Shown: positions 12,137 to 41,642 of the stretch, piece after piece | Position numbering within the stretch: the first letter of the stretch is position 1 | Layout: every line of letters starts with the position of its first letter | DNA from: an uncultured bacterium | Lineage (GTDB): Bacteria > Chloroflexota > UBA5177 > JANWHV01 | Direction of reading: 5' to 3' | DNA: 64,000 nt | Assembly (NCBI GenBank): GCA_963729625.1 | Contig: CAVSOU010000005.1 | Coordinates: 57,467 to 121,466 of the forward strand | The notes under the pieces: model-generated | Databases searched by the model: none | What the model was told of the DNA's origin: nothing | Seen by the model: the letters and a program-made list of their open reading frames with translations, nothing else | Made by a program: the position numbers and the translations under genes

Positions 12137-13012
12137 ATGATCGCCAGCATGACGGGCTTTGCCCGCCGCGAAGCAGCCCTTGCCCAGGGCACCCTGGTCT
12201 GCGAGCTGCGCAGCGTCAACCACCGCTACCTTGAGGCCGGCCTGCGGCTCCCGGAGGAGCTGAGGAGCCTGGAGGGGGAGTTCCGCGCCCAGCTGCAACG
12301 CGACCTGCGCCGTGGCAAGGTCGACTGCACCTTCACCTACCGCAGCGCAGGCCCGTCGGACCGCAAGCTGGAGCTCGACCCCGCCCTGCTGGCCCAGCTC
12401 ACCGAGCGGCTGGCCCAGGTCGCCGCGGCGGTCCCTGCGGGCGGCGCCCAGACGAGCGTGGACCTGGTGGAGCTGCTGCGCTTCCCCGGGGTGCTGCGCG
12501 AGGCGGCCAGCGACAATGAGCCCCTGCTCAAGGCCGCCCGCACGCTCTTTGGCGAGGCGATCCGGGACTTGTCGGCGATGCGCTCGAGCGAGGGCGGCCG
12601 CCTGGCCGAACTGATCCTCACCCGCTGCACGCAGCTGGAGGAGCTGGTCGGGCGCGTGCGCACGCGTCTGCCTGAGGTGCACGCGCTGATCCGCGCCCGC
12701 TTCAACGAGCGCCTGGGGGAGCTGCGCAAGGAGCTGGATCCGGATCGCCTGGAGCAGGAGGTCGCCTTGAGCCTGCAGCGCCTGGACGTGGCGGAGGAGA
12801 TGGATCGCCTCGCCGGCCACCTGACCGAGACGCGCAAGATCATCGCAAGTCCCGAGGCCGCCGGGCGCAGGCTGGATTTCCTCATGCAGGAGTTCAACCG
12901 CGAGGCCAACACGCTCTCCTCCAAGTCCCAGGACCTGGAGACCACGCGCGCCGCGGTCGACATGAAGGTGCTGATCGAACAGATGCGCGAGCAGGTGCAA
13001 AATTTGGAGTGA
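12137..13012 (+). CDS. yicC: YicC/YloC family endoribonuclease; its 3' end is the integration target
   Basis: MIASMTGFAR, ELRSVNHRYLE, GRRLDFLMQEFNREANTLSSK, EQMREQVQNLE*. Confidence 0.96.
   Translation: MIASMTGFARREAALAQGTLVCELRSVNHRYLEAGLRLPEELRSLEGEFRAQLQRDLRRGKVDCTFTYRSAGPSDRKLELDPALLAQLTERLAQVAAAVPAGGAQTSVDLVELLRFPGVLREAASDNEPLLKAARTLFGEAIRDLSAMRSSEGGRLAELILTRCTQLEELVGRVRTRLPEVHALIRARFNERLGELRKELDPDRLEQEVALSLQRLDVAEEMDRLAGHLTETRKIIASPEAAGRRLDFLMQEFNREANTLSSKSQDLETTRAAVDMKVLIEQMREQVQNLE
12991..13010 (+). repeat. att core at yicC 3' end (attL)
   Basis: GCAGGTGCAAAATTTGGAGT; exact copy at 14595-14614, 19-bp copy at 16418-16436, diverged copies at 31925 and 35231. Confidence 0.85.
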
Positions 13013-13219
13013 TCTGCGGCGGAAACCGCCCGCAGACGCCTGCGGTGGTGGCGCACGGACAGGGGCGTCACGATATTGCCCAGAGCACCAACGGCTGGTC
13101 GATCGCGTATTTACGCAACTCGCGCCTGAGTAAAAGTGCTGAACGGGTAGCTACGCTGCCATCGCTGGCTGCGCCGCGCTGAACTAGGATCAAGCGGGGT
13201 TGACGGGGGCGCAGCGACT

Positions 13220-13852
13220 ATGGACAGACTCAGGGTCGGTATCCTGATCTTCGACGGCGTCGAGGTGCTGGATTTTTGTGGCCCGTTTGAAGTGCTATCC
13301 GTGACTCGTCTCGATGAGGCCACCCGACGCGAGCAACCCTCACCCTTCGAAGTCTCGCTGCTTGCCGAGACGGATCAACCGGTGGTGGCCACTGGCGGAC
13401 TGCGCGTGCTGGCCGACTACCAGCTCGCCAACTGCCCGCCCTTGGACGTGCTGCTGGTGCCCGGCGGCTGGGGGACCCGCAGGGAAATGAACAAACACCG
13501 TCTGCTCGAGTGGATCGCGCAGCGTGGCGCACAGGCCCGACTGCTGACCTCGGTGTGCACCGGCGCCCTGTTGCTCGGCTAGGCTGGCCTCTTGGACGGC
13601 AAGCGCGCGACGACGCATTGGCAGGCCCTGAGCCTGAAGCAGAAGCGGTTTCCCAATACCTGCGTCGAGCACAATCTGCACGTGGTCGAGGACGGTAATC
13701 TATTAACGTCGGCGGGCATTTCGGCCGGCATCGATATGGCGCTGCGTGTCGTCTGGCGCTACTGCGGTGAGTCCGTGGCTCGGGCGACCGCGCGCTATAT
13801 GGAGTATCCGTTCCCGGAGAACAATGCGCGCCGCATCGCGCTGGACGAGTGA
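13220..13852 (+). pseudogene. DJ-1/PfpI family protein (InhA/ThiJ-like) with in-frame TAG at 13580-13582
   Basis: FDGVEVLDFCGPFEV, LLVPGG, SVCTGALLLG*AGLLDGKRATTHW, TSAGISAGIDMAL all in one frame. Confidence 0.85.
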
Positions 13853-13920
13853 ACTGTTCCTGACCACCGGCCCGTTCCAAGGGGCTTCCAAGCGGTCACG
13901 AGCCGAACAAGTTCCGGGGC

Positions 13921-14199
13921 CTACCGTGACCGCAATTCCTGGCGCAACACGTCACGCAGCCTACGCACCGTAAGCGGGGCGTCGTCCGCATTCATGGCAG
14001 CGCGCAGCGTGTCGTTGATGAGCGTCTGGTAGTTGCCGCCGCCCTTCACTTGGGCACGGAACCACGCCAAGACATCCGCGTCGATGCGGATCGTGATGCG
14101 CTCCTTGCTCTCGTTCTCCTTCTGGATGCGGGCAAGGTGGGGAACATCCTTCGCCCGCTTTGCACGGCTGAAATCAAGCTCGGGCATTTCCGTCTTCAT
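13921..14199 (-). CDS. BrnA-family antitoxin
   Basis: MKTEMPELDFSRAKR...KERITIRIDADVLAWFR...GGNYQTLINDTLR; start overlaps the toxin stop. Confidence 0.88.
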   Translation of the reverse strand: MKTEMPELDFSRAKRAKDVPHLARIQKENESKERITIRIDADVLAWFRAQVKGGGNYQTLINDTLRAAMNADDAPLTVRRLRDVLRQELRSR

Positions 14200-14471
14200 G
14201 GCAGCTCCTCGTATTGACGCGCTGCGCCTGCGCTCGCCTTGCGGGCCGAAATGATGCGCGTAACATCCGGGCCGCGTTCCGTCCACACCACATACAGCAG
14301 CCGATCAGAGAAGGCTCTGCCCAGCGTGACAAACCGGGCTTAATCTTCGGCCGTCGGGTCATCACGTGTCAGACCGAGCGGGTCTTCGAGCGCACCCACA
14401 GCATCCGCGAAATCCACCTCGTGCTTGCAAATGTTCTCCTGCCGCTTGGCTTCGTCCCACTCGTTGCGCAT
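14196..14471 (-). pseudogene. BrnT-family toxin with in-frame TAA at 14340-14342
   Basis: Manual translation: MRNEWDEAKRQENICKHEVDFADA...AED*ARFVTLG...LYVVWTERG..TRIISARKA. Confidence 0.85.
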
Positions 14472-14478
14472 AGTCTAT

Positions 14479-14499
14479 TGTATGCACGTCGTGCATACA
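14479..14499. promoter_or_regulatory. Probable brnTA operator
   Basis: Perfect 9-bp inverted repeat TGTATGCAC-gtc-GTGCATACA just upstream of the brnT start. Confidence 0.6.
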
Positions 14500-14529
14500 G
14501 TCAATACCGCTACGCTTCACCGGGAGATG

Positions 14530-14614
14530 TATAGCTGGCCCTAAAACGCGTCAAAGTTTTTATCATTATCAACGCGATACGAGCACCGTAAATTGCAGGT
14601 GCAAAATTTGGAGT
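14530..14614 (+). repeat. att junction 1 (arm site, IHF-like site, yicC core)
   Basis: TATAGCT at 14530, TATCAACGCGATA about 30 bp before the core, 20-bp exact yicC core; about 49 bp similar to the junction at 16388-16436. Confidence 0.8.
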
Positions 14615-14667
14615 CAATTTGAGGTAACAGCTGGAGAGCCAACATCCGGTTACTCCGGATGGTCCTG

Positions 14668-14684
14668 TACGGTAAAATGCCGTA
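14668..14684. promoter_or_regulatory. Probable operator of the DUF1778/GNAT TA operon
   Basis: Inverted repeat TACGG-N7-CCGTA just upstream of the antitoxin. Confidence 0.5.
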
Positions 14685-14700
14685 TCTTCTGGAGGCGCCC

Positions 14701-14976
14701 ATGCCCACCACCACCGCCCGTTTCGATCTCAAACTGGATTCCGGCGAAAAGGAAATCATCGCGCGGGCAGCTGCCCTCATGGGAACAACCATGGCCGGCT
14801 TTGTGCGAGCGGCAGCCAAGGAGAAAGCGCAGACATTGCTCGAACGTGAAACCCGCGTTGTACTCAGCGAACGCGATTTCGCGCGTTTTGCAGCGGCCGT
14901 CAGCGGACCTTTCGAACCAAACGCGCACTTGTCGCGGGCGCTGAAGGAGGCACGGCGGAAAGTGCGTCGTGCTTGA
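14701..14976 (+). CDS. DUF1778 (TacA/AtaR-like) RHH antitoxin
   Basis: ARFDLKL...KEIIARAAALMG..MAGFVRAAA...LSERDFARF...EPNAHL.RA. Confidence 0.85.
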   Translation: MPTTTARFDLKLDSGEKEIIARAAALMGTTMAGFVRAAAKEKAQTLLERETRVVLSERDFARFAAAVSGPFEPNAHLSRALKEARRKVRRA

Positions 14977-15454
14977 GGAACGCGCATTCGATATCGGTGT
15001 ACATGACCGCGGCGGTTTCGATTGCGGTGTTCCCGAACTCAACAATTACTTGAGACGCTTCGCGGAGCAGCATCGCCGCAAAGGTATCAGCACACCGTTC
15101 GTGCTGGTGGATGTCGATACGCCGCACGAGATCTTGGGCTACTACTGCCTTAGCGCAGCACAAGTAGACGCGACAGAATTGGGGGAAAGTGCCCGCAGGA
15201 AACTGCCACGTTATCCGGTGCCGTGCTTTCGTCTCGGTCGGCTGGCGGTGCACAAGCGCCTGCGCGGGCAGGGCATAGGGAAACTGCTGCTAGCCTGCGC
15301 CATCGATCGCTGCCTGAAGGCACGGAGCGACGTGGCAGCCTACGCGCTGATTGTCGATGCCAAGGATGAAAACGCCAAGCAGTTCTACGAGCGCTACGGA
15401 TTCGCCGTGCTTGTCAGCGCGCCGATGACACTCTACCTGGGGCTTGGCCGATGA
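14969..15454 (+). CDS. GNAT toxin (TacT/AtaT-like)
   Basis: [58 protein letters not shown]. Confidence 0.9.
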
Positions 15455-16344
15455 TGGACGTGGACGGGCTCATCGCCTCGATCATCCGCGACGAGGATCG
15501 CGTGCCACGTGAAGTTATCGAAGAGTGCGCACGTTGGGGACCCGCGATGGTCGAAGCCTTGGACCGAATCGTCGGTCCCGCAGCGGACTGGAGTTCCTGT
15601 GCCAGTGATGGCCACTGGTGGCTGCGGCTGCACGCGGCGTTCATTCTCGGCCTGATGGACGATACAGAGTCAGGCCGCCTGCTCGCACACCTGATGCGAC
15701 GGCTTGCGGCCAATGAAGACGAGAACATCGAAGACTGGCTGGCCGGCTACTGGCCTGCCCTGTTCCGCAACAAGCCCGAGGAAGTTCTTCCGGACATCGA
15801 AGCCATTGCATGGACTGACTTCGCACAACCCTACTTCCGTGTGCATGTGCTGGAAGTTTTGCTGGCAGCGGCTCTGCGACGAGGCCCCGGGGAACTCGAT
15901 GCACTCCTTGCACACATAGCGGAGTGGATCGCGGCCGCACCGGATCAGGAGGAGCGCGCGCTGACTGCCAACATCCTGCTGGATTTTCCGCGCTCCGCCC
16001 ACCGAGCCTTGCTGAGTGATATGGCGGCACGGCAGAAGGGCATGTTCGGCTTGTTTGACGAATCCGATGTCGAATGCTCGTATGCCAAGGGCGACCAACC
16101 CGGCTGGTTGCGCTTCGAGGATCCCTGGAGGTTTTATTCACCTGATCAGATCGACGCCCGACAAAAACGCTGGGCCGAGGAGGATGAGAGGCGCTCGCGG
16201 AACGCTGTCGCCGAAGCCGCAGGGATCGACGAATCCCTTTACGAGCAGGAGCCGTATCTGCGCAATACGCTCAAAGTGGGTCGCAACGATCCGTGCCCGT
16301 GTGGCAGTGGCAAGAAATACAAAAAATGCTTGAGCGGCGTGTAG
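15451..16344 (+). CDS. DUF1186-like helical protein with C-terminal SEC-C motif
   Basis: C-terminal [19 protein letters not shown]; helical N-terminal region. Confidence 0.75.
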
Positions 16345-16436
16345 CTGGCGGTGCAGCTATTATCGGATGCCGACCATTTCCGTAAATTTATCAATGCGCT
16401 ACGCGCACCAGAAATTCCAGGTGCAAAATTTGGAGT
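16340..16436 (+). repeat. att junction 2
   Basis: TGTAGCT (16340) and TGCAGCT (16352), TATCAATGCGCTA, core CAGGTGCAAAATTTGGAGT followed by AG (VQNLE*). Confidence 0.8.
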
Positions 16437-16857
16437 AGTTAGCATAGCGAACTACTTCCAGCACCCTGACCTGCCGTCTCTTTACCGCACTGAATTCATG
16501 CGGAGAATGGGCTCGTCGTCGCAACAATCGTCTGCTCAAGGCGCCCTGCAGACAACACGAGTATCAGGGCGATCCACCCCGAAACACTCTGGTCGCATTG
16601 TCGACGTTGAGTCCGGAGCTGACTGTGCGCTAGGTCAACCCACACTCAACTAATATTTGTATAAGAAGGAAAGGTGTGTTTGCGCCGATTGACTCTCCGG
16701 CGTGGCGACTGCGACGGCGACTTCGGAGCGTGGTGAGTCGCCCGCAAGAAGAATGGAGGTGGCCCCATGGACATCCCTTCGTCCTCTTGCCGGGGCCTTG
16801 TGCCGGCCCCGTGCAACCCCCTGATGGCCAAGCCCCGGGCGGGGCAGGCTCTGCGCC

Positions 16858-17637
16858 TCAGCCCTTGCAGGGGTGCGGCGCCCACTTGGAGCCGTCGGGC
16901 TCCTTGCGAAAATGCGAGCTGGTCATGAACTGGCGCTGCAGGTATTGCGGGTCGTCGACCAGCGTCGTGACCACGAACCACTGACTGCCATCGGCGACCG
17001 GGAACGTGTCGTAGTACTCGGTGATCTTCGCGTTCTCGCTGTAGGGCACGCCATTACGTCGCAGCCAGCCTGCCGTGTGGTTATCGGTCACCACGTGCAG
17101 CGAACCGTTCGGTGGGAGCCTGCTCGGGTCGGCGGCCGGGCCAGCCAACAAGTCGGTTGGGTCGACGGAGTATTCCCAGTTCGCAAGCGAGTTGCCCTGC
17201 AGCGTGCGCGGACCGGCCTTGATGTCGGCCTTGTCAAAGTTCAGCACGCGCGTCTGCTGGCCCCAGTCGGACTCGATCTTCAGCGTCTGGTCGTCGACCC
17301 AGGTGATGTGCAGGCGCGTGGGCATGCGCAGCAGGTTGCCGACGCCGTAGGCCTTGCACGAGCCGTCGTTGGCGTCCGTCCAGGTGTCGGCCTGCTTCTT
17401 GCCCTCGGGGTTGAGCGGCACGCTCTGGTAGTCGCCCTTGGCCGGCGTGACCATGCGGTAACGCCAGTCCTCGTTGACGATCGAGACCCAGTAGCCGGCC
17501 AGGTCGATCGGGGCTGCAACCTTCGGGGCCGGCGGCGGGCCGGTCGGACCGCGCGGGGCCTGCTGCGCAGTGGCCATCTGCCCCAGCGTAAGCAGTGCCA
17601 CCGCGAGGGTGATGCTCTTAACGGCGCTGATCTTCAT
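16858..17637 (-). CDS. Uncharacterised secreted protein, paralog B1
   Basis: Signal peptide; DLAGYWVSIVNEDWRYRM, VPLN, CKAYG, GWLRRNGVPYS, KEPDGSKWAPHPC. Confidence 0.75.
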   Translation of the reverse strand: MKISAVKSITLAVALLTLGQMATAQQAPRGPTGPPPAPKVAAPIDLAGYWVSIVNEDWRYRMVTPAKGDYQSVPLNPEGKKQADTWTDANDGSCKAYGVGNLLRMPTRLHITWVDDQTLKIESDWGQQTRVLNFDKADIKAGPRTLQGNSLANWEYSVDPTDLLAGPAADPSRLPPNGSLHVVTDNHTAGWLRRNGVPYSENAKITEYYDTFPVADGSQWFVVTTLVDDPQYLQRQFMTSSHFRKEPDGSKWAPHPCKG

Positions 17638-17710
17638 GAGATGCTTTCTCCAGGACTGTTCGTTCAGCCGTGCGCTGCCTGGGCCCGGGCCCCGCGGCGG
17701 CGCCGGGTGC

Positions 17711-18745
17711 TTACTTCTTGCCCTTCGGGGCAGGCCTGAGCGAGTTGTAGATGGCTTCGATGAACTTGTCGGTCGTCCAGAAGCCCGTGGTCGCGCCGAA
17801 TCGACCGTCGTAGTCGGACGAAGGCTTGGCGGCCTTGACCTGGTCGAGGGTCTTGCCGGCCTTGATGAGCACCGCGACGCGGTCACGGATGATCGTGAGC
17901 ATATCGCGGTATTCGACCAGGTCGGACTGGTCGCCGATGCGGCCGTGGCCCGGGATGATCAGCGTGCCGCCTTCCTGCTGGTGGTCGGGAACCGCGTAGT
18001 CGATGATGTCGTTCACCGCAGCCAGCACGCCATTGATGTTGCCGCCATTGGCGGTGTCGATCACCGGGTACATGTCGGTGAAGTAGAGGTCGCCGGTCGC
18101 CACCACGTCGGAGCGCCGGAAGCTGACCCAGTAGTCGCCATCGGTGTGCGCGTTCTTCGGGTGCACCATCTGCACGGCCTCGCCGTTGAAGTGCAGGCTG
18201 TAGATGGGCTCGAGGTGCGTCTCGGAAGGCCACAACTCGCGGTCGGCCTTGAAGCCGCCCGGGCCCTTCGCGTCGGGCTCGGTCATGTAGATCATCACCG
18301 TCTCGTGCGCCATGACAGTCGCGCCGGTCGGGATATTGCCGCGATCGCGCACCACGTTGCCGTCGAGGATGGTGTCACCGGCCTTGCGGATCACCTCGTT
18401 GCCGCCGGTGTGGTCGGCATGCAGGTGGGTGTTGATCACGTAACGGATCGGCTTGTCGCCGGCGAGCTTCTTGATCGCCGCGAGCAGCTGCTCGGCGAGC
18501 GGGCGGATGCCGGTGTCGACCACCAACACGCCTTCATCACCGAGCTGCACGACCACGTTCGAGGGCTCGCCCGTCATCGGCCAGACGTTGCCGGCGACGT
18601 GGTAGGGCACGATCTCGACGGCCGGGCGGGCCGCAGGCGCGGCGCCCGCGGGAGTGGCGGGCTCGGCCGCGAGGGCCGTGCCACCGGCCAGGGCCGCGAC
18701 GAGGCCAAGGAGGCTCAGCGCCGAAGCCTTGCGATTGCCGTGCAT
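17711..18745 (-). CDS. Secreted MBL-fold metallo-hydrolase (MBL1) with intact metal motifs
   Basis: Signal peptide; NTHLHADHTGGN, AHTDGD, GDLY, PGHG. Confidence 0.85.
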   Translation of the reverse strand: MHGNRKASALSLLGLVAALAGGTALAAEPATPAGAAPAARPAVEIVPYHVAGNVWPMTGEPSNVVVQLGDEGVLVVDTGIRPLAEQLLAAIKKLAGDKPIRYVINTHLHADHTGGNEVIRKAGDTILDGNVVRDRGNIPTGATVMAHETVMIYMTEPDAKGPGGFKADRELWPSETHLEPIYSLHFNGEAVQMVHPKNAHTDGDYWVSFRRSDVVATGDLYFTDMYPVIDTANGGNINGVLAAVNDIIDYAVPDHQQEGGTLIIPGHGRIGDQSDLVEYRDMLTIIRDRVAVLIKAGKTLDQVKAAKPSSDYDGRFGATTGFWTTDKFIEAIYNSLRPAPKGKK

Positions 18746-18799
18746 GCTGCACTCCATACCAGTATTGATTGCGTTGGATCGGGTCATGGCGTTGCCTGC

Positions 18800-19700
18800 T
18801 TACTTCTTCTTCGCCGGCTTCTTGGCCGAGGCTTGCTGCGCGCGCCAGGCGGCGATGCGATCCTGCGTCTCGGGCAGCGCGGTCTCGGGGCCGCCCTCGG
18901 TCTCGGCGAACGGCAGGTTGAAGCGGTTCGCGTATTCGTGGTCCATGTCGTCGGTGCCCGGCAGGTGCGCCGGCACCATGCCGCGCTCGCGCGGGATCTC
19001 GGTGGCCGGGCGGCACGGGTAGGCGCCGATCGCCACATTGTCAGCCCTGGCGGTAGCCGGTGGTCTTGATCATCGGCTCGGCGAGGTACACCGGGTCGTA
19101 GACCATCAGCACGTGCGTGAGCACGTCTCCGTGGCGGATGAAGCGCTCGTCGGAGCTGGCGCGGTCGGAGAGCGCCAGGCCGTTGCGGCGGATCCAGCCC
19201 ACCTTGAGGTGGTCGGTGTGCACGACCAGCTGGTCGCCTTCCCAGCGGCCGAGCGAGAAGCCCTGCCAGGTGTGCGGAGAGGCGGCGACCGGGTGCGGGC
19301 GGCCGTCCATGTAGATGTGGCGGTGCTGCGCTTCCCAGACGATGTAGGTCTCGATCTCGGTCTGCTTCTGCGTGACCGGGTCGAGGTCTTCCCAGATACG
19401 CAGGGTACCAACGCCGCGGATACCGTAGGTCGAGGGGTGCGGGATGCATTGGTGCTCGGGCTCGGTAAGGATCGACGGATCCCACGCGTGGCCGCGCTCG
19501 CGCATCGCCTGGTTGATGGGAGCCGCCGTACTCGTGCTGGTCGGGGCCTGGGATTCGCTCGTCGAAGTCCTCGTCGAACACGGGGCCCCAGTAGCCGAGC
19601 AGCAGACTCTGGGAGTGGGCCGGTGCATCGCCAGCAACCCAAGTGCCGCCAGCATCACGCAAGCGAGAGCCGTACGCGCATTAAATGTCGACATTTTCAT
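18800..19700 (-). CDS. Uncharacterised secreted protein, paralog A1; frameshifted
   Basis: GYWGPVFDED..., PINQA, HQCIPHP, IYMDGRPHP, WQGFSLGRWEGDQLVVHT, GWIRRNG, DPVYLAEP, GGPETALPE across three frames. Confidence 0.7.
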
Positions 19701-19730
19701 AACTTCGCCTCGGACGGGACTGGAACGAGA

Positions 19731-20822
19731 TTAATGCTTACCGGCCGGTCGTAGTGCGCAGACAGAAAGCACTGCCAGCGCTGTGGCGCTGGGCGAGGCA
19801 GCATCCGGACACTGGTCATTTCGTGCCTTCAGAATGCATCGCAACGTGTAGTAAAGCCCTGGTCTCCGGCTACGGTGAAGGACGAGCCGCAGCAATAGTG
19901 CCCGCAGTATTCGCCGGTGGCCGATAGGCAGGTGCGATGCGCTGCGCGAACTCCGCATACATCGTGTCTCGCCCCCCATCGCTGCCTCATGCGGGATGTT
20001 GTACTGGGTTGTCATCGACATGAAGTTCGGGTTGTCGGCCGGCGTCAGATAGCTCGGCACGTGGCCGTTCAGCACGCTCGGCACCTCTTCCGCGGACATG
20101 CAACTGTTCGGGTTGGTCGCCCCGACCACGGCATCCAGCGGCTTGCTGTGGTCTGACGCGAACACATTGGTGATCACAAAGGGGGCCGTCAAGTTGACCG
20201 GATCCTGGATGACGCCGGTGATCACAAGATTGGAGCCCTGCCGCGTCAGGAGACATGGTCAGGACCTCCTGATCGCTCGTCGGCACGCCATTGCGGGTCA
20301 AGTAGCCATCCTGCAAATGCGTGGTGACGGTCTTGAGCGTGTCGCCTTTCCAGCTTCCTATTGTGAACCCAGCGGGTGTTGAGAGCGCCTGGGCAGAGGG
20401 CGGCTTACGCCCATCCATCCATATGGTCGTGGGCTCCCGATCGATGGTGCCGTTCAGATTCCAGGCAATCACCGCACCGGTCTCCGGATCGACGGTGGGC
20501 CACAGACGGAAACCCCAAGCTGCCTCAAGCAAGTAGTGCAGCGAATAGGGTTGGCGCTGTTCCCCACTTCGCTGATGGTCTCGGGCGTGTGGCTCAGTGC
20601 GGCCGCGCGCGCCTGCTCATTGATAGGAATGCCGGCATAATCTTCGTAGTTCGGTCCTTCGAAAAGCAACTGGACATCCTGGTCCACGGCCCCCACGTAG
20701 GTACCGGAGAGATCTACCTGTGCCGTGGCGAGGCTCGTCTGCAGCAACAACGCGAAGCCGGCGAGCGCCCCAAGGCAGTTGAGCTGACGCCGGATCGGCC
20801 GGAACGTGGTGCGGCTTTTCAC
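19731..20822 (-). CDS. Uncharacterised secreted protein, paralog A2; frameshifted
   Basis: AQVDLSGTY, YAGIPINEQA, IWMDGRKPP, GFTIGSWKGDTLKTVTT, GYLTRNGVPTSD, DPVNLTAP; end approximate. Confidence 0.7.
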
Positions 20823-21642: not shown

Positions 21643-21676
21643 ATCTATTACCTACTCCTTCCTGTGCTGTCCGATC

Positions 21677-23967: not shown

Positions 23968-24210
23968 TTCAATGTCTCCGGGAAGGTCTGGTTGCAAAGG
24001 GTCCGCAGGGATTCACGGTCCGGTCTTGCACATCAGCGTTTTCACCGCGTATTCGACGTCCGCACTGCCACCACAGCAATAGTGCGTGCACTGACCCGCC
24101 GGGGGGCGGCGATAACGGCCAGCTTAGTGGTCGACTCCTCTTGCTCCTCGCGACAATCATGCCGGCAGCGCCACGCATGGCGCTGCCGGCTCTTCCTGCG
24201 CTACGGTTGA

Positions 24211-26529: not shown

Positions 26530-26757
26530 GGTGTCTAAATCCCCCCTTCTTCTTAACTTAGAGTTGGCCTGACTGTAATACCCAGTCGACTATCCCCTCA
26601 GGTGCCAAATACCCAGCACCTCCCATTCGTTGGGTGTGCCAGGGATACACTGGGGGCTGAGTAGCCGTCTTCACCCTGGCCGCGTAGGCCCGTGGCACAA
26701 TTTTGACGGGTGGTATTCTTCGATTAGTCCCATTCGCTCGGGTCAGCACAAACCACA

Positions 26758-27349: not shown

Positions 27350-27590
27350 GCGGGAGACCCCGGAATTGGCTTCGCCATCGCGCGCCTGGAATCCCCCGGA
27401 CTACTGCTGGTCCGGCAGTCGCCGAAGTGCGAATTCGACTCCGCAGGCGCTCATCCAGAGTGCATTCCACGGCTGTGACCAATGACTTGGCCGCGGGCAG
27501 CGTGCCCGCGGCCAAGTGAAGCCGGCCAGATTAATGCCTGCGGGGAGCGCGAGACGTCCAGCGCATGCCGCCCCAACCCGCACCGGTGAC

Positions 27591-29856
27591 CTAGCGCACA
27601 GTCCCGGAAGACGCATTGGCCCGGTCCGCCGTCACGCAGATGTAGTCCACGGGCGCCTCCACAAGTTCGCTAGTCGCCTGCGCCACAAGCGGCCAGGCGC
27701 AGACCGAACGTATACCGAACACAGGCTCGAACACAAAGCCCACCGGCGGCGGCACAGGAGTGTTGCGCCGCCGGGGCGTGATCGACAAGCAACACGTCCG
27801 GTGCGCGTCCACGCTGCACCCACTCGTCGAGCGCCGCAACCCAGTGGCCCCGAAACGTGTCGCCCTTCTGCCCGGAAGGCACGACGAACAGGCGATAGAA
27901 TTGACGCGCCGGTTCGATGCCACCTGCGCGCGCGCCCACGGCCTCATAGCCCTTGATCGCGTTGTCGGCCACCAGGGGCTGCGTGCCGCCACCGTGGTAT
28001 TCAATAATCTTGCCGCCGCGCGCCGCGAAGGCCGAGAGATCGGGTGCGGCCGAGCCCATCGAAGCCGGCGCGCCGTCGGCTGAGCCGACCACGAGGCCAT
28101 CGAAGTCCGCCGGGTTCGCCTGCACCTCGGCCAGAACCTGCGCCACGTCAGCCGAGCGGCTGTCGCGGTACGAGTAGCGGGGCGCTGCGCCGTAGAATGC
28201 CCCTATGAGCGCCTTGGCGATGACCGCGCCATCGCGCGCGCTGCCGCTCGCATCGCCAGCAGCCACCGCATAACCCTGCGCCAGCGCGTCGGTCATCGCC
28301 GCTGCGTCGGCGTTACCGAGCAACAGGAAACTGGCATTCCAACCAGCCGTCGGCAGCCACACCTGCACGCTGCCCACGCCCTTTCGACTCGATCCACGCT
28401 GCGCCGTGGCTTCGCAATGCGCTGGCACCTCCTGCCGGAAAGCCTGCCGGTCCAAGGCCGTTGACGCAGGCACGTCGATGGCACCCGCCGGCGCATCCTT
28501 GGCGCCTTGCACGCGGCCTTGTGCCAGTTTCACCGAGGCCAGCTGTGCACAGCCGATGACCGGAGCTTGCTCGGGCCGCGCCACCTGGGCCGTCAGCGCA
28601 CCGACGCCGTTGGCGATGACCGCGCCAGCCAGTGCTTCCAGCGGGGCGCGCCCGGAGCGTTTGTCGACCACGACTTTGCCATCCTTGAGCACGACCACGG
28701 TGTTGAGCAGCGCATGGAAATCGTCGAAGGGATTGCCCTGCACCAGCACGATGTCGGCGCGCTTCCCGGGCTCGATTGTGCCGATCTGGTCCTGTAAGCC
28801 GAGGAACGTGGCGGTGTTGATCGTCAGGATACGGATCACATCCTGCATCGAGAACATCACCATCAGCGACTTGAGCTCGTGCTCGAGCACATCGCGCACC
28901 GGATAGTTCTGGTCGCTGCCGAAACCGAGTCCCCTGCCATGCGACGCATCCCAGAGGCGACGCGCATTGATCAGCGTGTAGGCACCCTCGGTGCCGGTCG
29001 CGCGGCCTTTCGGATCGCGGTTCGGGTCCACGATCGACTCTGGCCAGCGCAGCCCCGAACGAAAGCGCGGCGTGTCATCCTGCGCGAACACGTCGATAAT
29101 CGGCGCGCCGAAACTGATCAGGTCGAGCACGATCGTGCCACTGTCGGCAATGTGCGCCGCGTCGTCGAAGCTCATGAAATCCTTGTTGGGCAGGTGTACC
29201 TGGTGGCGCACGCCGGCATCGGTTGCAGCGACCATGGCTGGCGTCGAGACCGCATGCACCAGGATCTCAACGCCCAGCTTCTTGCCCTCATCAACCAGTG
29301 CGCTGAGCATTGCCACCTCCTGCGGCGTGAGGCCCGGCGCCGGCATCATCGGCAGCTCGCCGGTGTACTTGATGCCCTGGGCGGCCATAGTCCGGAGTGC
29401 CTCGCGGCCCTTTTCCGGTGGCTGGTCCAGACCGAAGATGCCGGCCGATGCCAACACGTGCGGGCCGTTGATCAAGCCGAAATCAATGTGCCGCGCGAGC
29501 GCGAGCGTACCTTCGGCAGGGCCACCGCCCGCAAGCACGGTCGTGAAGCCGTTCTCGATCAGGTCAGCCAACTGCTCTTTTTCGTAGGGTCCGGTGTTGA
29601 TGTGCTTGTGGCCATCGACCAGGCCGGGCACTGCGGTCATGCCGCGCGCGTCGACGACGGTGCCCACAGGCTGGGCCGGGCGACCCGGGCCGACCGCAAC
29701 GATGCGGCCATCATGGACGGCTATGTACCCGCTCTGAATGACCGGACCATTGCCGACCGCGATGCGTGCGCCCACGATGGTGGCGTCCTGCGCCCAACCC
29801 GCTTGAGCGGCCGCGAGCATCAGCCCGGCGACCAGTGCCTGACCTACTGGATTCAC
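27591..29856 (-). CDS. Secreted amidohydrolase fused to a degenerate tannase/feruloyl-esterase-like domain; C-terminal frameshift
   Basis: PGLVDGHKH, HAVS, GSD, GTIEPGKRADIVLVQGNP; then VWLPTAGWN, ALAQGYAVAA, FYGAAPRYSY, PADFDGLVVG, PDLSAFAARGGKIIEYHG, ALDEWVQRGRAPD, CAWP. Confidence 0.75.
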
Positions 29857-30113
29857 GTCATACCTCCACTCATGTTGCAGTCATTTTCTTCAGACACACG
29901 GGCCTGTTTCTAACTTAGCGCAGCACACCGTCCTTGAATAGCCGCCTTGCCTGCAGTTCGATCGTGCCGCCAACCAGGTCCGCGGGCACTCATGGTGCTA
30001 CTTGGACCGGGGCTCCTACGCAGGAAGCCGCCAGCGCAACGTCACCCACTCGTACGCATGCTCATCCAGATCAGGAAAGAATGGGTTGGGTGGCATCTCC
30101 GCCCTGAGGAAGG

Positions 30114-31532
30114 GATCGTGTCCCAGCGAGTGGTGTATGAGTCGTGAGTTCTGGTCAGGTTGGACTCATGCTCAGTTGACGACGGCCGACAACCGAACGG
30201 CTTGATTGTTGCTCAAGGACTGCAGGCCCTCAAGCTGCATGTAGCGGCGCTGCAGTTGCCACTCGTCGTTTTGCTCCAGCAGCAGCGCCCCGACGAGGCG
30301 TATCACAGCGTTTTCGTTGGGGAAGATGCCGACGACGTCGGTCCGGCGCTTGATCTCGGCGTTGACCCGCTCCAGCGGGTTGGTGCTGTGGATCTGGGTC
30401 CGGTGGGCCTTCGGGAAGCTCATGTACGCCAGCACATCGGCCTCGGCGGTGTCCATCAGGTCCGCGAGCTTGGGGAACTTCGCGCGCAGCTGATCGGCGA
30501 CGACACGCCACTGCTGCGCTTGCCGAGTCGAACGAGTCCTGCGCGAACGCGGTGTTGATCGCCGCCAGCACCATCTGCCGCTGGCCCTTGCCGGCGTGCG
30601 CCAGGGCGTTCCGCAGGAAGTGCACCTTGCAGCGCTGCCACGTGGCGGCCAGCACCTTGGCGGCGGCGGCCTTGAGGCCTTCGTGGGCGTCGGAGATCAC
30701 AAGCTTTACGCCCCGCAGACCGCGGCGGGTGAGGGAGCGCAGGAACTCGGTCCAGAAGGGCTCTGCTTCGCTCGGCCCGACCGCCATGCCGAGCACTTCG
30801 CGCACGCCGTCGGTGTTGACCGCTACGGCGATTATTACGGCCTTGGAGACGATCCGGCCGGCCTCCCGTGCCTTCACGTAGGTCGCATCGATCCACAGGT
30901 ATGGCCAGTCCCCTTCGATGCGGGCGATCGAGGAACGCATGAACGCGTTCGTCGATCTCCCCGCAGAGCCTGCGACCTGGCTCTTGGAGATCCCGGTCAT
31001 GCCCATGGCCTTGACCAGCTCGTCGACCGAGCGGGTGGAGACGCCCTGGATGTAGGCCTCCTGGATCACCGCCGCCAGCGCCTTCTCCCCCGTGCGGCGC
31101 GGCTCCAGGAACCCCGGGAAGTAGCTGCCCTGAGCGCAGCTTGGGGATCTTCAGATCGACCGAGCCGGCGCGGGTCTCCCAGAGCCGCTCCCGGTAGCCG
31201 TTGCGGCTGTTGGCCCGGTCCGGACTGCGCTCGCCGTAGGCGGCGGCGCAGAGGCCCTCGGCGTCCATCTCCATCATCCGCTGGGCGACGTACTGGATCA
31301 TCTGCCGCAGCAGATCCGTGTCTGCCCCCTTCTCGATGAGCTCGGACAGTGCAATGCTTGGCTTGGTGGTCATCGTGGTGTTCTCCGGTTGAAGTCCGGT
31401 GTGGTAACCAAACCTTAAACCAGGACCCACGATGGCCGCCTTCCCGTCGCCTGCGGCGACGTCGGCGCTACCTCTCCGAGCTAAAAGCTCAGATCAGCAA
31501 ATCCCTCATACACCACGGGATGGGACGTCAGC
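30114..31532 (-). mobile_element. IS256-family insertion sequence
   Basis: Inverted ends GTCCCAGCGAGTGGTGTATGAG (30120-30141) and CTCATACACCACGGGATGGGAC (31505-31526); no target duplication recognised; outer ends inferred from IS256 end spacing. Confidence 0.85.
30172..31373 (-). CDS. IS256-family transposase; frameshifted
   Basis: [74 protein letters not shown]. Confidence 0.92.
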
Positions 31533-31639
31533 AGAAGTGTTGCCCGGCCGCTATCGCCGCGTGCACATCTTCGAAGCCAATGCCACGCTCAGCCCAGAGC
31601 AGCCTGTTCTTGGCCTCGCTCCAGCGATAAGTCTTCGCT
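31533..31639 (-). pseudogene. 5' fragment of a BrnT-like toxin cut off at the IS256 end
   Basis: Manual translation KTYRWSEAKNRLLWAERGIGFEDVHAAIAAGQ resembles the W...KN..L..ERGISFE N-terminus of BrnT-like toxins. Confidence 0.55.
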
Positions 31640-31780
31640 GGACAAGACCATTACAATGTGTGCCGTTTGTCATCGGCTGCTCCAGCGCTGGTGTAGTTCG
31701 TCACCTCAGAAAGAGCGCGCCGGCGCACTGACATGTGTACCCGCGCATCTAGACGGAAAAGGCTGGAAATCTTCGTTTTG

Positions 31781-31943
31781 TCCGGAGTAGCCCAGGCCAA
31801 TCCTCGAGGCGCCACGGACATCCAGCCAAATCCACCCATCTCGTTGTAGCTAGATCAGTAGCTTACTTGGCGCAGCACTTCTTTTCGCAGCTGTGTCAAT
31901 TGGTTAGGGAGGTGGGGAGAAGCGGGTGCAGAATCTGGAGCAG
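31781..31943 (+). repeat. att junction 3
   Basis: About 160-bp diverged repeat of 35087-35249; TGTAGCT (31845), AGTAGCT (31857), TCAATTGGTTA, core GGTGCAGAATCTGGAG (VQNLE). Confidence 0.78.
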
Positions 31944-32162
31944 TTTGCGCAGCAAACTACTCCAGATCGCTCACAAGGCCGGGCATATGTCAGCAACGGC
32001 GCGTGGTGGCCGCCCTGTTGTGGCCCTGATTGTTATCACGAGCGGCCAGTGCGCATCCTGAGTATCGTGGCGATTCGCACCGAAACACGACGCTCGGAAA
32101 TGGCTCAGCAGGGGCGTTCACACGTGAACTCGCGGCGCGGCATCAACCATGATGTGCGGCTG

Positions 32163-33521
32163 TCAAGCAAAGCTGATCAACACAACTACGCCGGTACGAT
32201 CTGCTGTCCGCTGATAGGCATCCACAGTCTGCTCAAGCGAATACGTATGCGTGATCATCGATTTCACGTCGTAAGCGCCGGTCTCGATGTAGCGCACGAA
32301 GCGCGGTATGTCCCTGAGGGGTACGGCACCGCCGAAAGTCGAAGGGTGGTGCGTCCTGTTCATAACAGCCCACATGCCGGGGTTTGAAAAGACCAGATCG
32401 CCATGCTGCCCTGCACCCAGTGTGATGAAGTCTCCCCCGGGAACACATGCCTCCCACGCCTGGCGTAACGAGGTAACGCCAGAAGGATCAGGCCCAGCTG
32501 GCACCTTGGGCGGGAGTCGATCGCCCCCCACTGCTTCGATGACAAGCTCGCCGCCGGCGGTCGCAAACGACGGACCTCCTCCGGCAAAGGTTCTCGACGA
32601 ATAACCGGTACAAATCGACTTGATGCTGGCAATGAGGTTATTTCCCTCTGAGTTTGGATCCAGCACATGTGTAGCACCCAGTTTCAATGCCAGATCCCGG
32701 CGGTGTTTCGCGGGTTCCACAACCACAATTCTGGAGGCACCGCGAATCCTCGCTCCCTGTACTGCACTGAGCCCCACCAGCCCTGCGCCCAAGACGACGA
32801 TGTTTGAACCCGGAAGCACCGGCACGAAACAAGCTGCCGCTGCAAGTCCAACCGTGCCGCCACTGATAAGTACCGCAAGCTCTTGGGATGAAACGCTGGA
32901 ACTTACCGGGTGCACAGAATACTCATAGGGCACCATAATCTCTGAGGTGCCGCCAACGTTCGCTGTCTGATAAATCTTCTCGCCACTCCTTGTCTCTGCA
33001 ATCGGTACAAGTGGTTCAAAGAACGCATTGCAAAAGTCTGCTCGCCCCTTTACGCAGGCGCTACACACGCCGCAATGCGGGTTGAACGCGACGATGACAC
33101 GATCGCCAACCTTCGCGCGCGTGACAGCCGATCCCACGGCCTCGACAATACCAACGCCGCCGTGCCCGACGATCGTTGGCAGCTCAGGAAAATCCGGGGG
33201 CTCCAGCCCAAGCATGACCCCGGCGAGCGTATACGTACAGAGCGTCGCCTCCGTTCTAACAACTAATTGCTTCTCAGCGATGGGTCGCAGCGTCAGTTCT
33301 TCTATTGAGCTGCGCGTACCACGATGAACCTGTGCTCGGAATTTTCGGGCGGGAGTGGAGGCCGCTCGTGGTTCGGCCGCAGATGCCGTTGCTCCTAGGG
33401 CAGCGCCGCCAATCATTGCCCCTGCGCCAACCAACGCATTTCGCCTTGAATAGATTGGCTTTGATGAGTCGTCGCTGTCGATCATCCCCGGCGTGCTATC
33501 GGAGGTGTTCATAATCCCCAC
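32163..33521 (-). CDS. Zn-dependent medium-chain dehydrogenase with Tat signal peptide
   Basis: SRRNALVGAGAMIGGAALGATASA; GHGGVGIVEAVG, CGVCSACVKGRADFC, GAGLVGLSAVQGA. Confidence 0.85.
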   Translation of the reverse strand: MGIMNTSDSTPGMIDSDDSSKPIYSRRNALVGAGAMIGGAALGATASAAEPRAASTPARKFRAQVHRGTRSSIEELTLRPIAEKQLVVRTEATLCTYTLAGVMLGLEPPDFPELPTIVGHGGVGIVEAVGSAVTRAKVGDRVIVAFNPHCGVCSACVKGRADFCNAFFEPLVPIAETRSGEKIYQTANVGGTSEIMVPYEYSVHPVSSSVSSQELAVLISGGTVGLAAAACFVPVLPGSNIVVLGAGLVGLSAVQGARIRGASRIVVVEPAKHRRDLALKLGATHVLDPNSEGNNLIASIKSICTGYSSRTFAGGGPSFATAGGELVIEAVGGDRLPPKVPAGPDPSGVTSLRQAWEACVPGGDFITLGAGQHGDLVFSNPGMWAVMNRTHHPSTFGGAVPLRDIPRFVRYIETGAYDVKSMITHTYSLEQTVDAYQRTADRTGVVVLISFA

Positions 33522-33989
33522 TACCTTGGTACTTGGTACCCACTTCTCGCCCTAACGAAATCATGTAGCTCCCAATGCCCGTCTATGGCACAGGAATAGG
33601 CGGATAGTACTTTCAGTCGGCCATGATTGGCCACGATTGCGCGACAGACCGCCTCGCGAGCACCTCGCGCGTGCCGGCCGGACGCCCGATCAGGATATCG
33701 CCAGCGCAGCCGCCAGCCTCTGATCAGCCTGTCAGCCCCAGCTGGGCTGGGCCAGTTGACCTATGACTGCCTCTCCACTCCGGCCCCCGTCAGCCCGTCA
33801 CCGGGCGCAGCCCGTCCCGACCCGCTGCCGTGATGGCGCAGGATCGGCTCTCGATCCGATTGCCGAAGCCCCACCCTGGCCGCACAGCAACGCCCACGGC
33901 AGCGGCGGCGCCCGCGCTGCTTGGGGCGCCAGTTCCGGCTCCTGGGCACCGGTGGTGCGATCCGGACGCACCAGGATGCCAGCGATGAC

Positions 33990-34325
33990 CGCCGGCTCTA
34001 CCTTCGCGCCGGGCCTGTCATATACCGCGTGCACCACAAGTTCGCACACACCGATGTGGCGGTGTCGGCCGGCGTGCAGTACAGGGTGCGCAGTGACCTG
34101 GGCGCCAGCGGCGTGATGTTCACGCTCGACACCGACTCGGACTTCCGCGACGTGGTGTTCATCGCCAGTTCGTACGGCCTCGGCGAGACCGTCGTGCAGG
34201 GCGCGGTGAACCCGGACGAGTACTACTTGCACAAAGCCGGCCTCGCGGCCGACCAGCGCTGTGTGCTGCAGCGGAACCTCGGCGCCAAGGCCATCAAGAT
34301 GATCTATGCCGAGGGTGGCAGCGAC
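33990..34325 (+). pseudogene. ppsA: Internal fragment of phosphoenolpyruvate synthase
   Basis: [64 protein letters not shown]. Confidence 0.8.
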
Positions 34326-34435
34326 AACGGGGCAGCGGCACGCGGGTCCGTCCATCCTACAAGAACGTTGCCGCATCGCATGCAATGGCCGCACCCCATA
34401 GTCGGTACCGTGTATCCCATGGCTCACAGTACCCC

Positions 34436-34745
34436 ATGCGTCAGATCATCCGGTCTGGAACGTTTGGTCTCTGGTTAGCCGGTCTTCGTGATCGCAATGC
34501 TAGAACGCGGGTCATGGTGCGCGTGGACTGGCTGGCCGGCGGCAATGCGGGCGACGTGAAGCCGGTAGGCGCTGGTGTCAGCGAACTGCGCATCGACTGC
34601 GGCCCAGGTTACCGCGCGTATTTCTTCCAGAGGGGCGACGTGCTTGTGGTGCTGCTTTGCGGTGGCGACAAGCGCACCCAGGTGGCCGATATCAAGCAGG
34701 GGCGATCCAGTTGGCCGCACAGTGGCAGGAGCAGAATCATGGCAA
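34436..34745 (+). CDS. RelE/HigB-like addiction-module killer toxin; C-terminal frameshift
   Basis: [14 protein letters not shown]...[41 protein letters not shown]; end approximate. Confidence 0.85.
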
Positions 34746-35039
34746 AAGCCAAGCGCGAGAAGTACGCTTCTTACGACAGCGCGGACTGCCTTCGCGCCAA
34801 GTAAGGACGTTGCCGCTTATCTCAGGGTCTGCATGGAAGATGCGGGCGATGATCCCGCCTTCATCGTCCAGGCACTTGGTACGGTGGCACGCGCCAAAGG
34901 CATGCCGAGCCTTGCCAAGAAGACGGGACTCACGCGAGAGGGCCTGTACAAGGCGCTAAGCAAAGGCGGCAATCCAAGCTTCGGCACCGCGTTTCGAGTC
35001 ATCCACGCCAAGGGCCTGAGGATGGAATTGGCACGCTAG
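34739..35039 (+). CDS. Addiction-module antidote (HTH antitoxin); frameshifted
   Basis: YDSADCL / DVAAYL...DPAFIVQALGTVARAKGM..LAKKTGLTREGLYKALSKGGNPSFGT. Confidence 0.85.
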
Positions 35040-35086
35040 ATTCGGGTCATTAATTCGGCCGACAACGACGGAACTCTCGCACTTCG

Positions 35087-35249
35087 TCCGGAGTAGTCCG
35101 ACATGGCCCGGCAAGCGGCAACGACGTCCAACCAAATCTAGCCCTTTCGTTGTAGCTGGATCAATAGCTAGATTGGAGCAGCCCTACTTTTCGCAGCCAC
35201 TTCAATTGGTTAGGAAGGCGGGGAGGAGTTGGTGCAGAACATCGAATGA
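35087..35249 (+). repeat. att junction 4, directly upstream of the integrase
   Basis: TGTAGCT (35151), AATAGCT (35163), TCAATTGGTTA, core GGTGCAGAACATCGAATGA encoding VQNIE*, a typical YicC C-terminus. Confidence 0.8.
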
Positions 35250-35381
35250 CTTCCGCAGTCATCCGAGAGCTTCCAGAGAAGTTGCCGTAAACCCCATGAG
35301 TTTCTGTCTGTTTTGACCAGATTCATCCACTAGGGCCCAACCCCCTCTGGGCTACATTCGCAGCGAGGCAGGTAGCCGACC

Positions 35382-35401
35382 TGTAGCTAATTCTGTAGCT
35401 A
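35382..35401 (+). promoter_or_regulatory. Tandem arm-type integrase binding sites
   Basis: TGTAGCTA at 35382 and 35394, with the same 12-bp period as the pairs in the junction arms. Confidence 0.65.
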
Positions 35402-35424
35402 CCATTCGACGAGAAGGGGGCGCA

Positions 35425-36682
35425 ATGGCACGCGCGAAACTCACGGCGCTGAGCGTCGAGCGGGCTCACCGGTCCGGCGAGCCGCTGCTGCTCAGCGACG
35501 GTGATGGCCTCTACCTGCGTAAGCAGACCCGCGATGGCGCCTCGTGGACGCTCCGCTATCACTACGCGGGCAAGGAGCATTGGCTCACGCTCGGCAACTA
35601 TCCCGACATGCCGCTTTGCACAGGCGCGCATAGGCGCGCCAGGCGCGCGTGCTGCTCGCCAAGCAGCAGAATCCACTGGCCGTCCGGCGCAGCGCTCTGA
35701 CTAAGGAACGCCAGAAAGGGTCGTTCAAGACGCTCTGCGAGGATTGGTATCGCGCCGAAGTCCAGGCGCGCGGCCTCAAGCACCCCACCGTCCCGCGCCG
35801 CTATCTCGACAGGTACCTGCTGCCGAAGTTCGGTCGATTCCCTGCCAGCGACATCACGCCCGCGGATGTCGCCTGCCTGTTGGACGAGATCAAGGAGCGC
35901 GCCCCGACCGCTGCGAATGATCTCCTGCGCTTCACTCGGCGGATTTTCGCGTTCGGCGTGCGTCTTCGTTTCGTGCCGAGCAGCCCTGCGACCGATTTCT
36001 CGCCTCGACTGGATGCCGGCGGCACGGAACGGCCGCGCAGCCGCGCGTTGAGCACCGAAGAACTCGCACGACTCTTCAAAAAGATCCGCGAGACCCCGAG
36101 CTTCGGCGAGGACAACTTGCTCGCGATCAAGCTGCTGCTGGCACTGTGTGTACGCAAGGGCGAACTGCTGGGCGCAGGTGGACTGAGTTCGATCTCAACG
36201 GCAAAACTCCCCTCGGCGCTGTCTGGCACTTGCGTGGCCCGCGGACCAAAACGGGTGAGAGTCTCGACATACCGTTGACGCCGGCGGTGATCGAATGGGT
36301 CACCGCCTTGCACACGCTCACGGCGGGCAGCGACTACACCTTCCCGAAGCGCTGCCGTGGTCCGCGGGAGCGGGTACCGCACGTCGGTATCGATACCCTG
36401 AACGTGGCGTTGCAGCGCGTGAAGCACGAATTACCGCACTTCACACTCCACGATCTCCGGCGTACAGCGCGCACGCACCTCGCAGCATTGGGCGTGCGGC
36501 GCGAAGTTGCAGAGCGCTGTCTCGGCCACAAGCTCCGCGGGGTTGAGCGGACCTACGATCGTCACGATTACTTCAAGGAGCACCGCGTGGCGCTGGAGCA
36601 GTGATCCACGCTGATCCGCCAGGCTGAGAGCGGCGAACGGAAGGTCGTGCCCCTTCGCGCCAAGAACATTCGGGAAAATTAA
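35425..36682 (+). CDS. P4-like tyrosine integrase with N-terminal arm-binding domain; two frameshifts and a TGA at 36602-36604
   Basis: DGDGLYLR..W.LRY..LTLGNYP; CVRKGE (R), RTKT (K), HDLRRT, CLGH, TYDRHDY (Y). Confidence 0.9.
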
Positions 36683-37332: not shown

Positions 37333-37336
37333 CGCT

Positions 37337-41621: not shown

Positions 41622-41642
41622 GGGATCAACGGTCCTTGGGGT

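Follow-up and report, generated by a model that had tools for sequence, protein, structure and literature searches.

Five small islands stacked at the 3′ end of yicC, four of them without an integrase, in an uncultured Steroidobacteraceae-like gammaproteobacterium

In the three-step accretion model for cis-mobilizable elements (CIMEs), as set out in PMC5704250, older elements lose their integration genes and keep their attachment (att) sites, and other elements integrate alongside them. For tycheposons, the account of these elements in 10.1101/2020.12.28.424599 describes repeated integration at one site with partial target copies in between, new elements that push the older ones along, degenerated elements with fragmented integrases, and tandem repeat junctions in cultures. 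The gene yicC is itself a known island target, and a toxin–antitoxin (TA) system is described as stabilising a composite island (PMC8978831). Here we analysed a 64,000-nt stretch of DNA from an uncultured bacterium (the window; contig CAVSOU010000005.1 of assembly GCA_963729625.1, positions 57,467 to 121,466), in which five small islands are stacked at the yicC 3′ end, four of them without an integrase. The process behind the array is known, and the array is a clear new instance of it: tandem accretion that leaves integrase-less, att-flanked units behind already features in the accounts given by PMC5704250 and 10.1101/2020.12.28.424599.

Like the CIMEs related to the integrative and conjugative elements (ICEs) ICESt1 and ICESt3 of Streptococcus thermophilus, as presented in PMC5704250, the array is site-specific for the 3′ end of a conserved gene and consists of tandems separated by att sites. 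It differs from them in its P4-type integrase and arm sites, in its five units in a row and in its host, an uncultured peat gammaproteobacterium. Moreover, a complete P arm is retained at one end of its units and either the core alone or an arm-less stretch at the opposite end, and no conjugation, mobilisation or other transfer genes turned up in the units in Pfam and NCBIfam scans of open reading frames (ORFs), in which no search was aimed at oriT or mobI-type genes. Set beside the definition of a CIME, units 1–4 are flanked by att sites and lack integration and transfer genes of their own; intermediates of a derivation by deletion are found in relatives (L045, G189, G477, G242-B and G119), and the units of the window hold no such remnants. 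The tycheposon islands of Prochlorococcus resemble the array in their stacked and degenerated elements at one target. They differ, as far as 10.1101/2020.12.28.424599 describes them, in a tRNA-gene target, in replication modules and in remnants without clear boundaries, whereas the boundaries of the array are sharp. With the mobilizable genomic islands (MGIs) of Vibrio and Shewanella and with GI21 of Shewanella putrefaciens, the array has in common, by description only, the yicC target gene and TA systems. MGIs carry their own integrase and mobilisation functions.

Searching the whole window with the degenerate pattern GGTGCARAAYMTNGAR revealed five copies of the yicC 3′ core, all on the plus strand, at 12994, 14598, 16420, 31925 and 35231, against 0.01 expected; none of 100 shuffles of the window attained five. 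The first four copies read VQNLE and the one at 35231 reads VQNIE, and J0, J1 and J2 share the identical 19-nt CAGGTGCAAAATTTGGAGT. J0 (12991–13010, plus strand) is the core copy in the end of yicC itself (12137–13012, plus strand; 291 aa; Pfam YicC-like_N/C) and represents an attL-type site. Judged by the yicC ends of 80 relatives, the last codons of the gene, CAA AAT TTG GAG TGA, stem from an element and are richer in AT than the usual CAG AAC ATC GAG, of which they are a variant. The cores J1 (14595–14614), J2 (16417–16436), J3 (31922–31941) and J4 (35231–35246) close, on the plus strand, unit 1 (13011–14614, 1.6 kb), unit 2 (14615–16436, 1.8 kb), unit 3 (16437–31941, 15.5 kb) and unit 4 (31942–35246, 3.3 kb), respectively. 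Each of these units lies between two cores, with a P arm of the family type on its right side (14525–14597, 16334–16419, 31838–31924 and 35146–35230) and the core only, or an arm-less conserved end, on its left side.

Within the P arms, TGTAGCT is located 80 nt upstream of the core at three of the four junctions (16340, 31845 and 35151), and a second, xxTAGCT-type site 68 nt upstream at all four (TATAGCT, TGCAGCT, AGTAGCT and AATAGCT), followed in every case by TCAA 29 nt upstream of GGTGCA. The word TGTAGCT alone is not enriched in the window (6 occurrences against 3.21 expected; 9 of 100 shuffles attained 6). The pair TAGCT-N7-TAGCT with at most one mismatch is enriched, at four places (8 strand matches against 1.23 expected; 0 of 100 shuffles), and four of the five exact paired-arm matches in the 5.4-Mb assembly fall at the yicC locus. 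The arms form two families, one at J1 and J2 (14566–14614 versus 16388–16436, 88% identity over 49 nt) and one at J3 and J4 (31809–31952 versus 35115–35258, 76% identity over 144 nt). A TGTAGCT pair at 35382/35394 ends 25 nt upstream of the integrase start at 35425, and an arm-like GGTAGCT occurs in single copy 152 nt after J0, with 0.13 expected per 260 nt. Rfam and tRNA scans gave no match at the junctions.

The only integrase of the contig (35425–36604, plus strand) is of the P4 type, with its three domains spread over three frames: Arm-DNA-bind_3 (PF13356), Phage_int_M (PF22022) and Phage_integrase (PF00589). Outside 35.4–36.6 kb, no PF00589 or PF13356 match was found on the contig at E≤1, and units 1–4 are therefore without an integrase remnant; no AlpA-type excisionase was found on the contig either. 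Its closest relatives are island integrases adjoining yicC, and intact homologues with 60–89% identity lie directly after yicC elsewhere. Upstream of the gene, the P′ arm of island 5 (35247–35424, plus strand) ends at the integrase start codon and contains core-proximal CTTCC repeats and the arm-type sites GGTAGCC/TGTAGCT/TGTAGCT at 35371–35400; it is homologous to the P′ arms of seven relatives (L025, L162, L269, L058, L047, L020 and L036). As in P4-type islands, a three-domain integrase is accompanied by integration at a gene 3′ end that is duplicated as direct repeats. The family also resembles lambda and P4-type attP sites in an Arm-DNA-binding integrase, in direct-repeat arm sites on both sides of the core and in ATCAA at a fixed distance; for the array, binding and bending are presumed, and only part of the junctions match the full Escherichia coli consensus of integration host factor (IHF), WATCAANNNNTTR. 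In Steroidobacteraceae-like gammaproteobacteria, a family of small islands with a P4-type tyrosine integrase uses the 3′ end of yicC as its attachment site. Much of this had been claimed by an earlier note on this DNA and holds: the five core positions, the arms at the two fixed distances, the IHF-like TCAA about 30 bp upstream, the arm pair before the only integrase, the two arm families, units 1–4 without an integrase, and att junctions of a tyrosine integrase whose core, arm and IHF-like layout we find conserved throughout the family.

The survey of relatives covered 80 species-level loci, 151 family genomes, 401 order-level genomes and 120 metagenome stretches. The site is empty, with gmk at most 108 nt after yicC, in 31 of the 80 loci. 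Seven carry an integrase of the same family (60–83% identity) 180–250 nt after yicC, one has an integrase fragment and two have distant integrases. In the integrase-bearing loci, three or four TGTAGCT-type sites stand just upstream of the integrase start, and a P arm plus core closes the island 2.8–8 kb further on in L025, L047, L058 and L045. A count of the strict arm/TCAA/core pattern in the order-level genomes was discarded: it gave five matches, the same number as the reversed-pattern control, and only profile-confirmed matches were thus counted. The junction profile yielded 13 more junctions in the metagenome stretches and 4 in the order-level genomes. TCAA lies at –28 to –40 in 25 of 26 junctions, and the two arm sites are 12 nt apart in 24 of them; the scan pattern pre-selected the words but left 25 nt of play per gap, so that the fixed spacing is a real result. 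A near full-length model of the P-arm junction, built on sequence only, matched in 22 of the 151 family genomes (the unpublished G482 included), and two or more junctions on one contig occurred in three of them, G452 (3), G477 (2) and G242 (2).

We found 27 elements with both ends, of which 10 carry a full integrase, 3 a fragment and 14 none, units 1–4 of the window being four of the 14. Outside the window, integrases were sought by tblastn with pieces of the window integrase (E≤1e-4), and in G452, G477 and G493 additionally by Pfam on ORFs of at least 70 aa; the 14–16-kb elements of G420 and G428 were scored for the window-type integrase and may hold a recombinase of a different kind. Several of the 14 integrase-less elements consist of a TA pair and a P arm only.

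Relatives clearly show an ordinary route to integrase-less units by loss of the integrase. In L045, the integrase is internally deleted and both att sites are kept, and stubs of 27 and 23 aa are left in G189 and G477, respectively. Two elements, G242-B (1.26 kb) and G119 (1.1 kb), begin with about 100–120 nt of a P′-type end without arm sites or integrase, followed by a TA pair and a P arm, and the 1.05-kb element of G412 contains a DUF4160/DUF2442 pair and a P arm. Furthermore, in L057 (16438–16745) an AAA_21 gene with 86% identity to that of the window is truncated precisely at the joint between ...GGATGCAGG and the yicC core, indicating that core-anchored deletions happen. Signs of decay are also seen in the window itself, in the stops in the DJ-1 and BrnT genes, the PPDK fragment, the fragments of insertion sequences (ISs) and the integrase indels.

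On balance, we consider that the array probably arose by tandem site-specific accretion, with integrase-less units that are CIME-like products of loss or passengers. In the putative model, a complete element would consist of core, P′ arm with three or four TGTAGCT-type sites, integrase gene, cargo, P arm and core, the P arm comprising two TGTAGCT sites at a spacing of 12 nt and, after them, an IHF-like ATCAA site some 30 nt ahead of the core. The N-domain of the integrase would bind the arm sites and IHF would bend the P arm, roles which we infer by analogy with lambda and P4-type systems, together with the position of the crossover and the order of events. The strands would be exchanged in or just left of GGTGCA, and as a result each integration would duplicate the core and replace the last yicC codons. 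Five insertions would have accreted in tandem, with only the distal one keeping its P′ arm sites and integrase. Most integrase-less units would arise by loss of the integrase module after integration, TA addiction favouring what stays, and units 3 and 4 may be an integrase-less lineage spreading as a passenger of helper islands. The array is probably inert today.

Several observations weigh against simple loss of the integrase in the window. Units 1–4 have neither an integrase stub nor a P′-type end: blastn-short and the left-end profile gave only matches of 9–13 nt at chance level after J0–J3, and the integrase remnants behind each core that the earlier note had named as evidence of ordinary decayed islands are not found. 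The borders of the units are 0–2 nt from a core, where random deletions would rarely end. Meanwhile, the only integrase sits in the unit farthest from yicC, and it may be intact. Compared with close relatives it has indels of +1 near 35617, –2 near 35634 and –1 near 36175; single-base indels separate the window from Logan contigs of run X1 at 12 listed places between 19042 and 31393, with 21 more beyond the listing, and the frameshifts are hence perhaps assembly errors. In addition, conserved ends surround unrelated cargo without an integrase in units 3 and 4 and in two further elements, G442 and L156. The 170 nt after J2 are 85–86% identical both to the stretch that follows a P arm and core in L156, a metagenome contig, and to the stretch directly after yicC in G442. 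The left end of unit 4 is a diverged copy of that of unit 3, and the P arms of G442 and L156 are 76–80% identical to those of J3 and J4. Such ends in G442 and L156 are more in keeping with the transfer of an element that already had no integrase than with decay repeated independently; occurring in three contexts around different cargo and with no integrase, they suggest that an integrase-less lineage passed from host to host.

The conserved ends around unrelated cargo and the lack of integrase or P′ remnants in units 1–4 speak for a different explanation, which we regard as possible but doubtful: units 1–4, or at least units 3 and 4, would be non-autonomous mini-islands (satellites) that never had an integrase, and a helper integrase, such as that of island 5, would insert and excise them in trans, so that they would accumulate between the gene and the helper. 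It is also consistent with the 14 integrase-less elements among the 27 delimited and with the junction spacing of the window's own units, –80/–68/–29 versus –83/–71/–30 in most integrase-bearing islands. The G442 element is a clean single insertion of 2.65 kb with an amino-acid permease as cargo, in a host whose YicC is 57% identical to that of the window; it carries GCAAAATTTGGAGT, the unusual core variant of J0–J2, and the native-like core is displaced to its right end. In L156, P arm, core and left end are joined, as in an attP or a tandem junction. We rejected the idea that the 3′ part of yicC moves along with the element, given that the identity of G442 over the last 136 nt is mostly that of the conserved C-terminal domain and only the last 39 nt are identical.

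Nevertheless, decay intermediates are plainly present in the family. Neither the assembly of G442 nor that of G412 yielded a cognate integrase at E≤1e-10, and G119 and G493 have only paralogues with 29–33% identity. The unit-3-type left end contains no arm-type sites and occurs in only one of the 401 order-level genomes (G442), and we know of no lambda or P4-type system that integrates a one-armed attP. A weaker point is that the assembled contigs of four runs, which hide rare forms, hold no core-to-core or empty-site joint and no circle junction. For units 3 and 4, the non-autonomous cassettes proposed by the earlier note are a live possibility, given that these units share their ends with G442 and L156.

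Still more tentatively, units 3 and 4, G442 and L156 could belong to one lineage of integrase-less mini-islands with a one-armed attachment site and exchangeable cargo, parasitising the yicC-specific P4-type integrase of a helper island in trans. The one-armed site would have the P arm, with its pair of arm sites and its IHF-like site, to one side of the core, and the 170-nt arm-less end, which supplies the yicC stop codon and a hairpin, to the other. For example, the P–core of an element would recombine with the core–P′ of a helper, and elements would stack between yicC and the helper.

Arrival of the array en bloc, its construction by homologous recombination or an assembly chimera is improbable. 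The contig is mis-binned in its metagenome-assembled genome (MAG), as shown by divergent second copies of gmk, spoT, recG, rph, gltA and hemN on large contigs; composite CIME–ICE transfers appear in the account of PMC5704250; and the cores of J0–J2 are identical. However, the repeats are only about 20 nt and too short to mislead an assembler, a single, independently assembled 5.6-kb Logan contig of run X1 covers 12890–18502 (J0–J2), a contig from another study (X8) covers J1, and both flanks are syntenic with those of the relative L013. Moreover, arrival en bloc would leave what the units are unchanged.

As to the host, taking kin from the family given for the MAG in the Genome Taxonomy Database (GTDB) was tried and rejected: the 'same genus' genomes match the second gmk type, not that of the contig. 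The relatives of the window's YicC are found in Steroidobacteraceae-like MAGs, and the true kin of the contig are Steroidobacteraceae-like gammaproteobacteria. Two contigs from other data depart from the window at this site. One from X8 joins 12992 to 32289 with 38 other letters in between, and one from X2 follows yicC as far as 13010 and is unlike the window from there on, which indicates that a close relative has something else after the core. The unmatched letters of both gave no match to the window, the genome or any locus.

An integron-like platform, in which a resident integrase beside a fixed primary site adds promoterless cassettes in polar order to be expressed and shuffled, is the least credible explanation, although the array shares with integrons short, TA-rich gene units beside one tyrosine recombinase gene, several units being small with TA pairs (chromosomal integrons likewise carry TA pairs) and the integrase standing at one array end next to the complete P–core–P′ site of J4. 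Integrons differ in their integrase family, in attC and attI sites with a single-strand hairpin substrate and in co-oriented, mostly promoterless cassettes served by a common promoter, and in the array all three features tested, integrase type, attC-like folding and cassette orientation, turned out otherwise. The integrase domains are of the P4 type, not IntI, and the junctions are direct-repeat arm sites. In single-strand DNA folding of J1–J4, the z values were 0.31, –2.34, –2.74 and 0.07 for the top strand and 0.30, –1.72, –1.68 and 0.16 for the bottom strand; the signal at J2 and J3 comes from a short local hairpin 3′ of the core, and J1 and J4 fold no better than shuffles. Both strands carry genes in units 1, 3 and 4, and the TA operons have their own conserved operator region. 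Finally, 10 of the 27 delimited elements carry their own integrase directly after yicC, and arrays of at least two junctions per contig occur in only 3 of 151 family genomes. Contrary to the polarised gene-capture array of the earlier note, this is a hot spot filled by accretion and no platform dedicated to the capture of genes.

The earlier note had also let the array end at 36682 beside gmk and had drawn the unit boundaries wrongly. That position falls within a RloB gene (36679–37332, minus strand), gmk is at 50639, and island 5 runs to about 46 kb. No right-hand junction of island 5 was found after 35251, even at E≤50 with --max. In L013, the closest relative found (YicC 85% identical), synteny holds on both flanks and homology resumes at 46075; the inserted block is accordingly about 33 kb, and the right-hand junction of island 5 has been lost. 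The rest of island 5 (36605–46074) encodes, besides RloB, an AAA_21 ATPase split in two frames (37337–38729, minus strand), an SNF2 fragment (39783–41042, minus strand), a MarR-like protein (43450–43983, minus strand), IS1595 fragments (44119–45033, minus strand) and a GNAT protein (45289–46008). The native flank (46078–51262) begins with a secreted He_PIG/fn3 protein (46078–47019, minus strand) behind a c-di-GMP-I riboswitch (47124–47212, minus strand; 77.7 bits), followed by a 2-hydroxyacid dehydrogenase gene (47296–48459) and gmk (50639–51259, plus strand), then spoT and recG. The riboswitch leader of the He_PIG/fn3 gene is conserved in L013, L057, L065 and L020.

A TA pair is kept in three of units 1–4. 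Unit 1 contains a DJ-1/PfpI gene (13220–13852) with an in-frame TAG at 13580 and the genes of BrnA (13921–14286, minus strand) and BrnT (14208–14471, minus strand), the latter with an in-frame TAA at 14340–14342; both stops are unaltered in the contig of run X1. Unit 2 encodes TacA (14659–14976), a TacT-like GNAT toxin (14969–15454) and a SEC-C-motif protein (15451–16344). TacA/TacT genes with about 76–80% nucleotide identity to those of unit 2 also stand just after yicC in L040 (10892–11673), L073 (11630–12420) and L030 (12477–12759), and no downstream core repeat was found in these three.

Unit 3 starts with its conserved left end (16437–16590), in which the 3′ half of the core forms a hairpin, and its cargo lies mostly on the minus strand: two MBL-fold hydrolases, a TonB-dependent receptor, a LuxR protein, an amidohydrolase/tannase protein and an IS256-family transposase in two frames (30230–31430). 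Between the two MBL-fold hydrolases, whose matches to SoxH-related families are weak and far under the cut-off, runs a series of minus-strand ORFs (16858–23997) without a Pfam or NCBIfam family, adjoined by the TonB-dependent receptor and the 728-aa amidohydrolase/tannase protein; this run and its neighbours may be an uncharacterised catabolic cluster. In unit 4, the left end (31942–32095), related to that of unit 3, is followed by a Zn-ADH gene (32163–33521, minus strand), a PPDK_N fragment (33921–34478), a RelE/ParE-type toxin (upstrm_HI1419, 34385–34804) and its antidote (dnstrm_HI1420, within 34575–35039).

Some further insertions at yicC in relatives deserve mention. L017 (6647–8969) contains a 2.27-kb, lower-GC insertion with a single gene for a 677-aa secreted protein, flanked on both sides by perfect 33-nt repeats of the yicC end; neither an integrase nor a TGTAGCT arm was found in it, and it may be a leftover of a different island family. 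A conserved motif of about 40 nt beginning GGAAAAGCCTTGAATAGGCAA occurs within L220/L098 (G242-B), L265 (G119), L254 at 408 and 4284 (G477) and L095 at 785. One copy closely follows an AlpA gene and another an integrase stub, and the motif may delimit the int/alpA module from the cargo. In G428 (L260, 1305–1375), the yicC core is directly followed by a stretch that matches part of the P arm in inverted orientation.

In summary, the locus is a sharply delimited example of how a hot spot in a protein gene fills, with five att-separated units. With the conserved attP plan of arm distance, ATCAA and core, such islands and what is left of them could be sought in MAGs of a soil and peat family about which little is known. 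If the lineage with conserved ends is mobile in trans, it would be a simple satellite system based on a tyrosine recombinase, of interest for integrative elements, that builds ordered arrays without attC hairpins; such mobility, should it prove right, would extend the concepts of CIMEs and integrative mobilizable elements (IMEs) rather than overturn them. Going by the census, it appears that about half of the elements delimited at the yicC site are without an integrase and that TA pairs most often survive, which is relevant to the gathering of TA and defence genes at hot spots.

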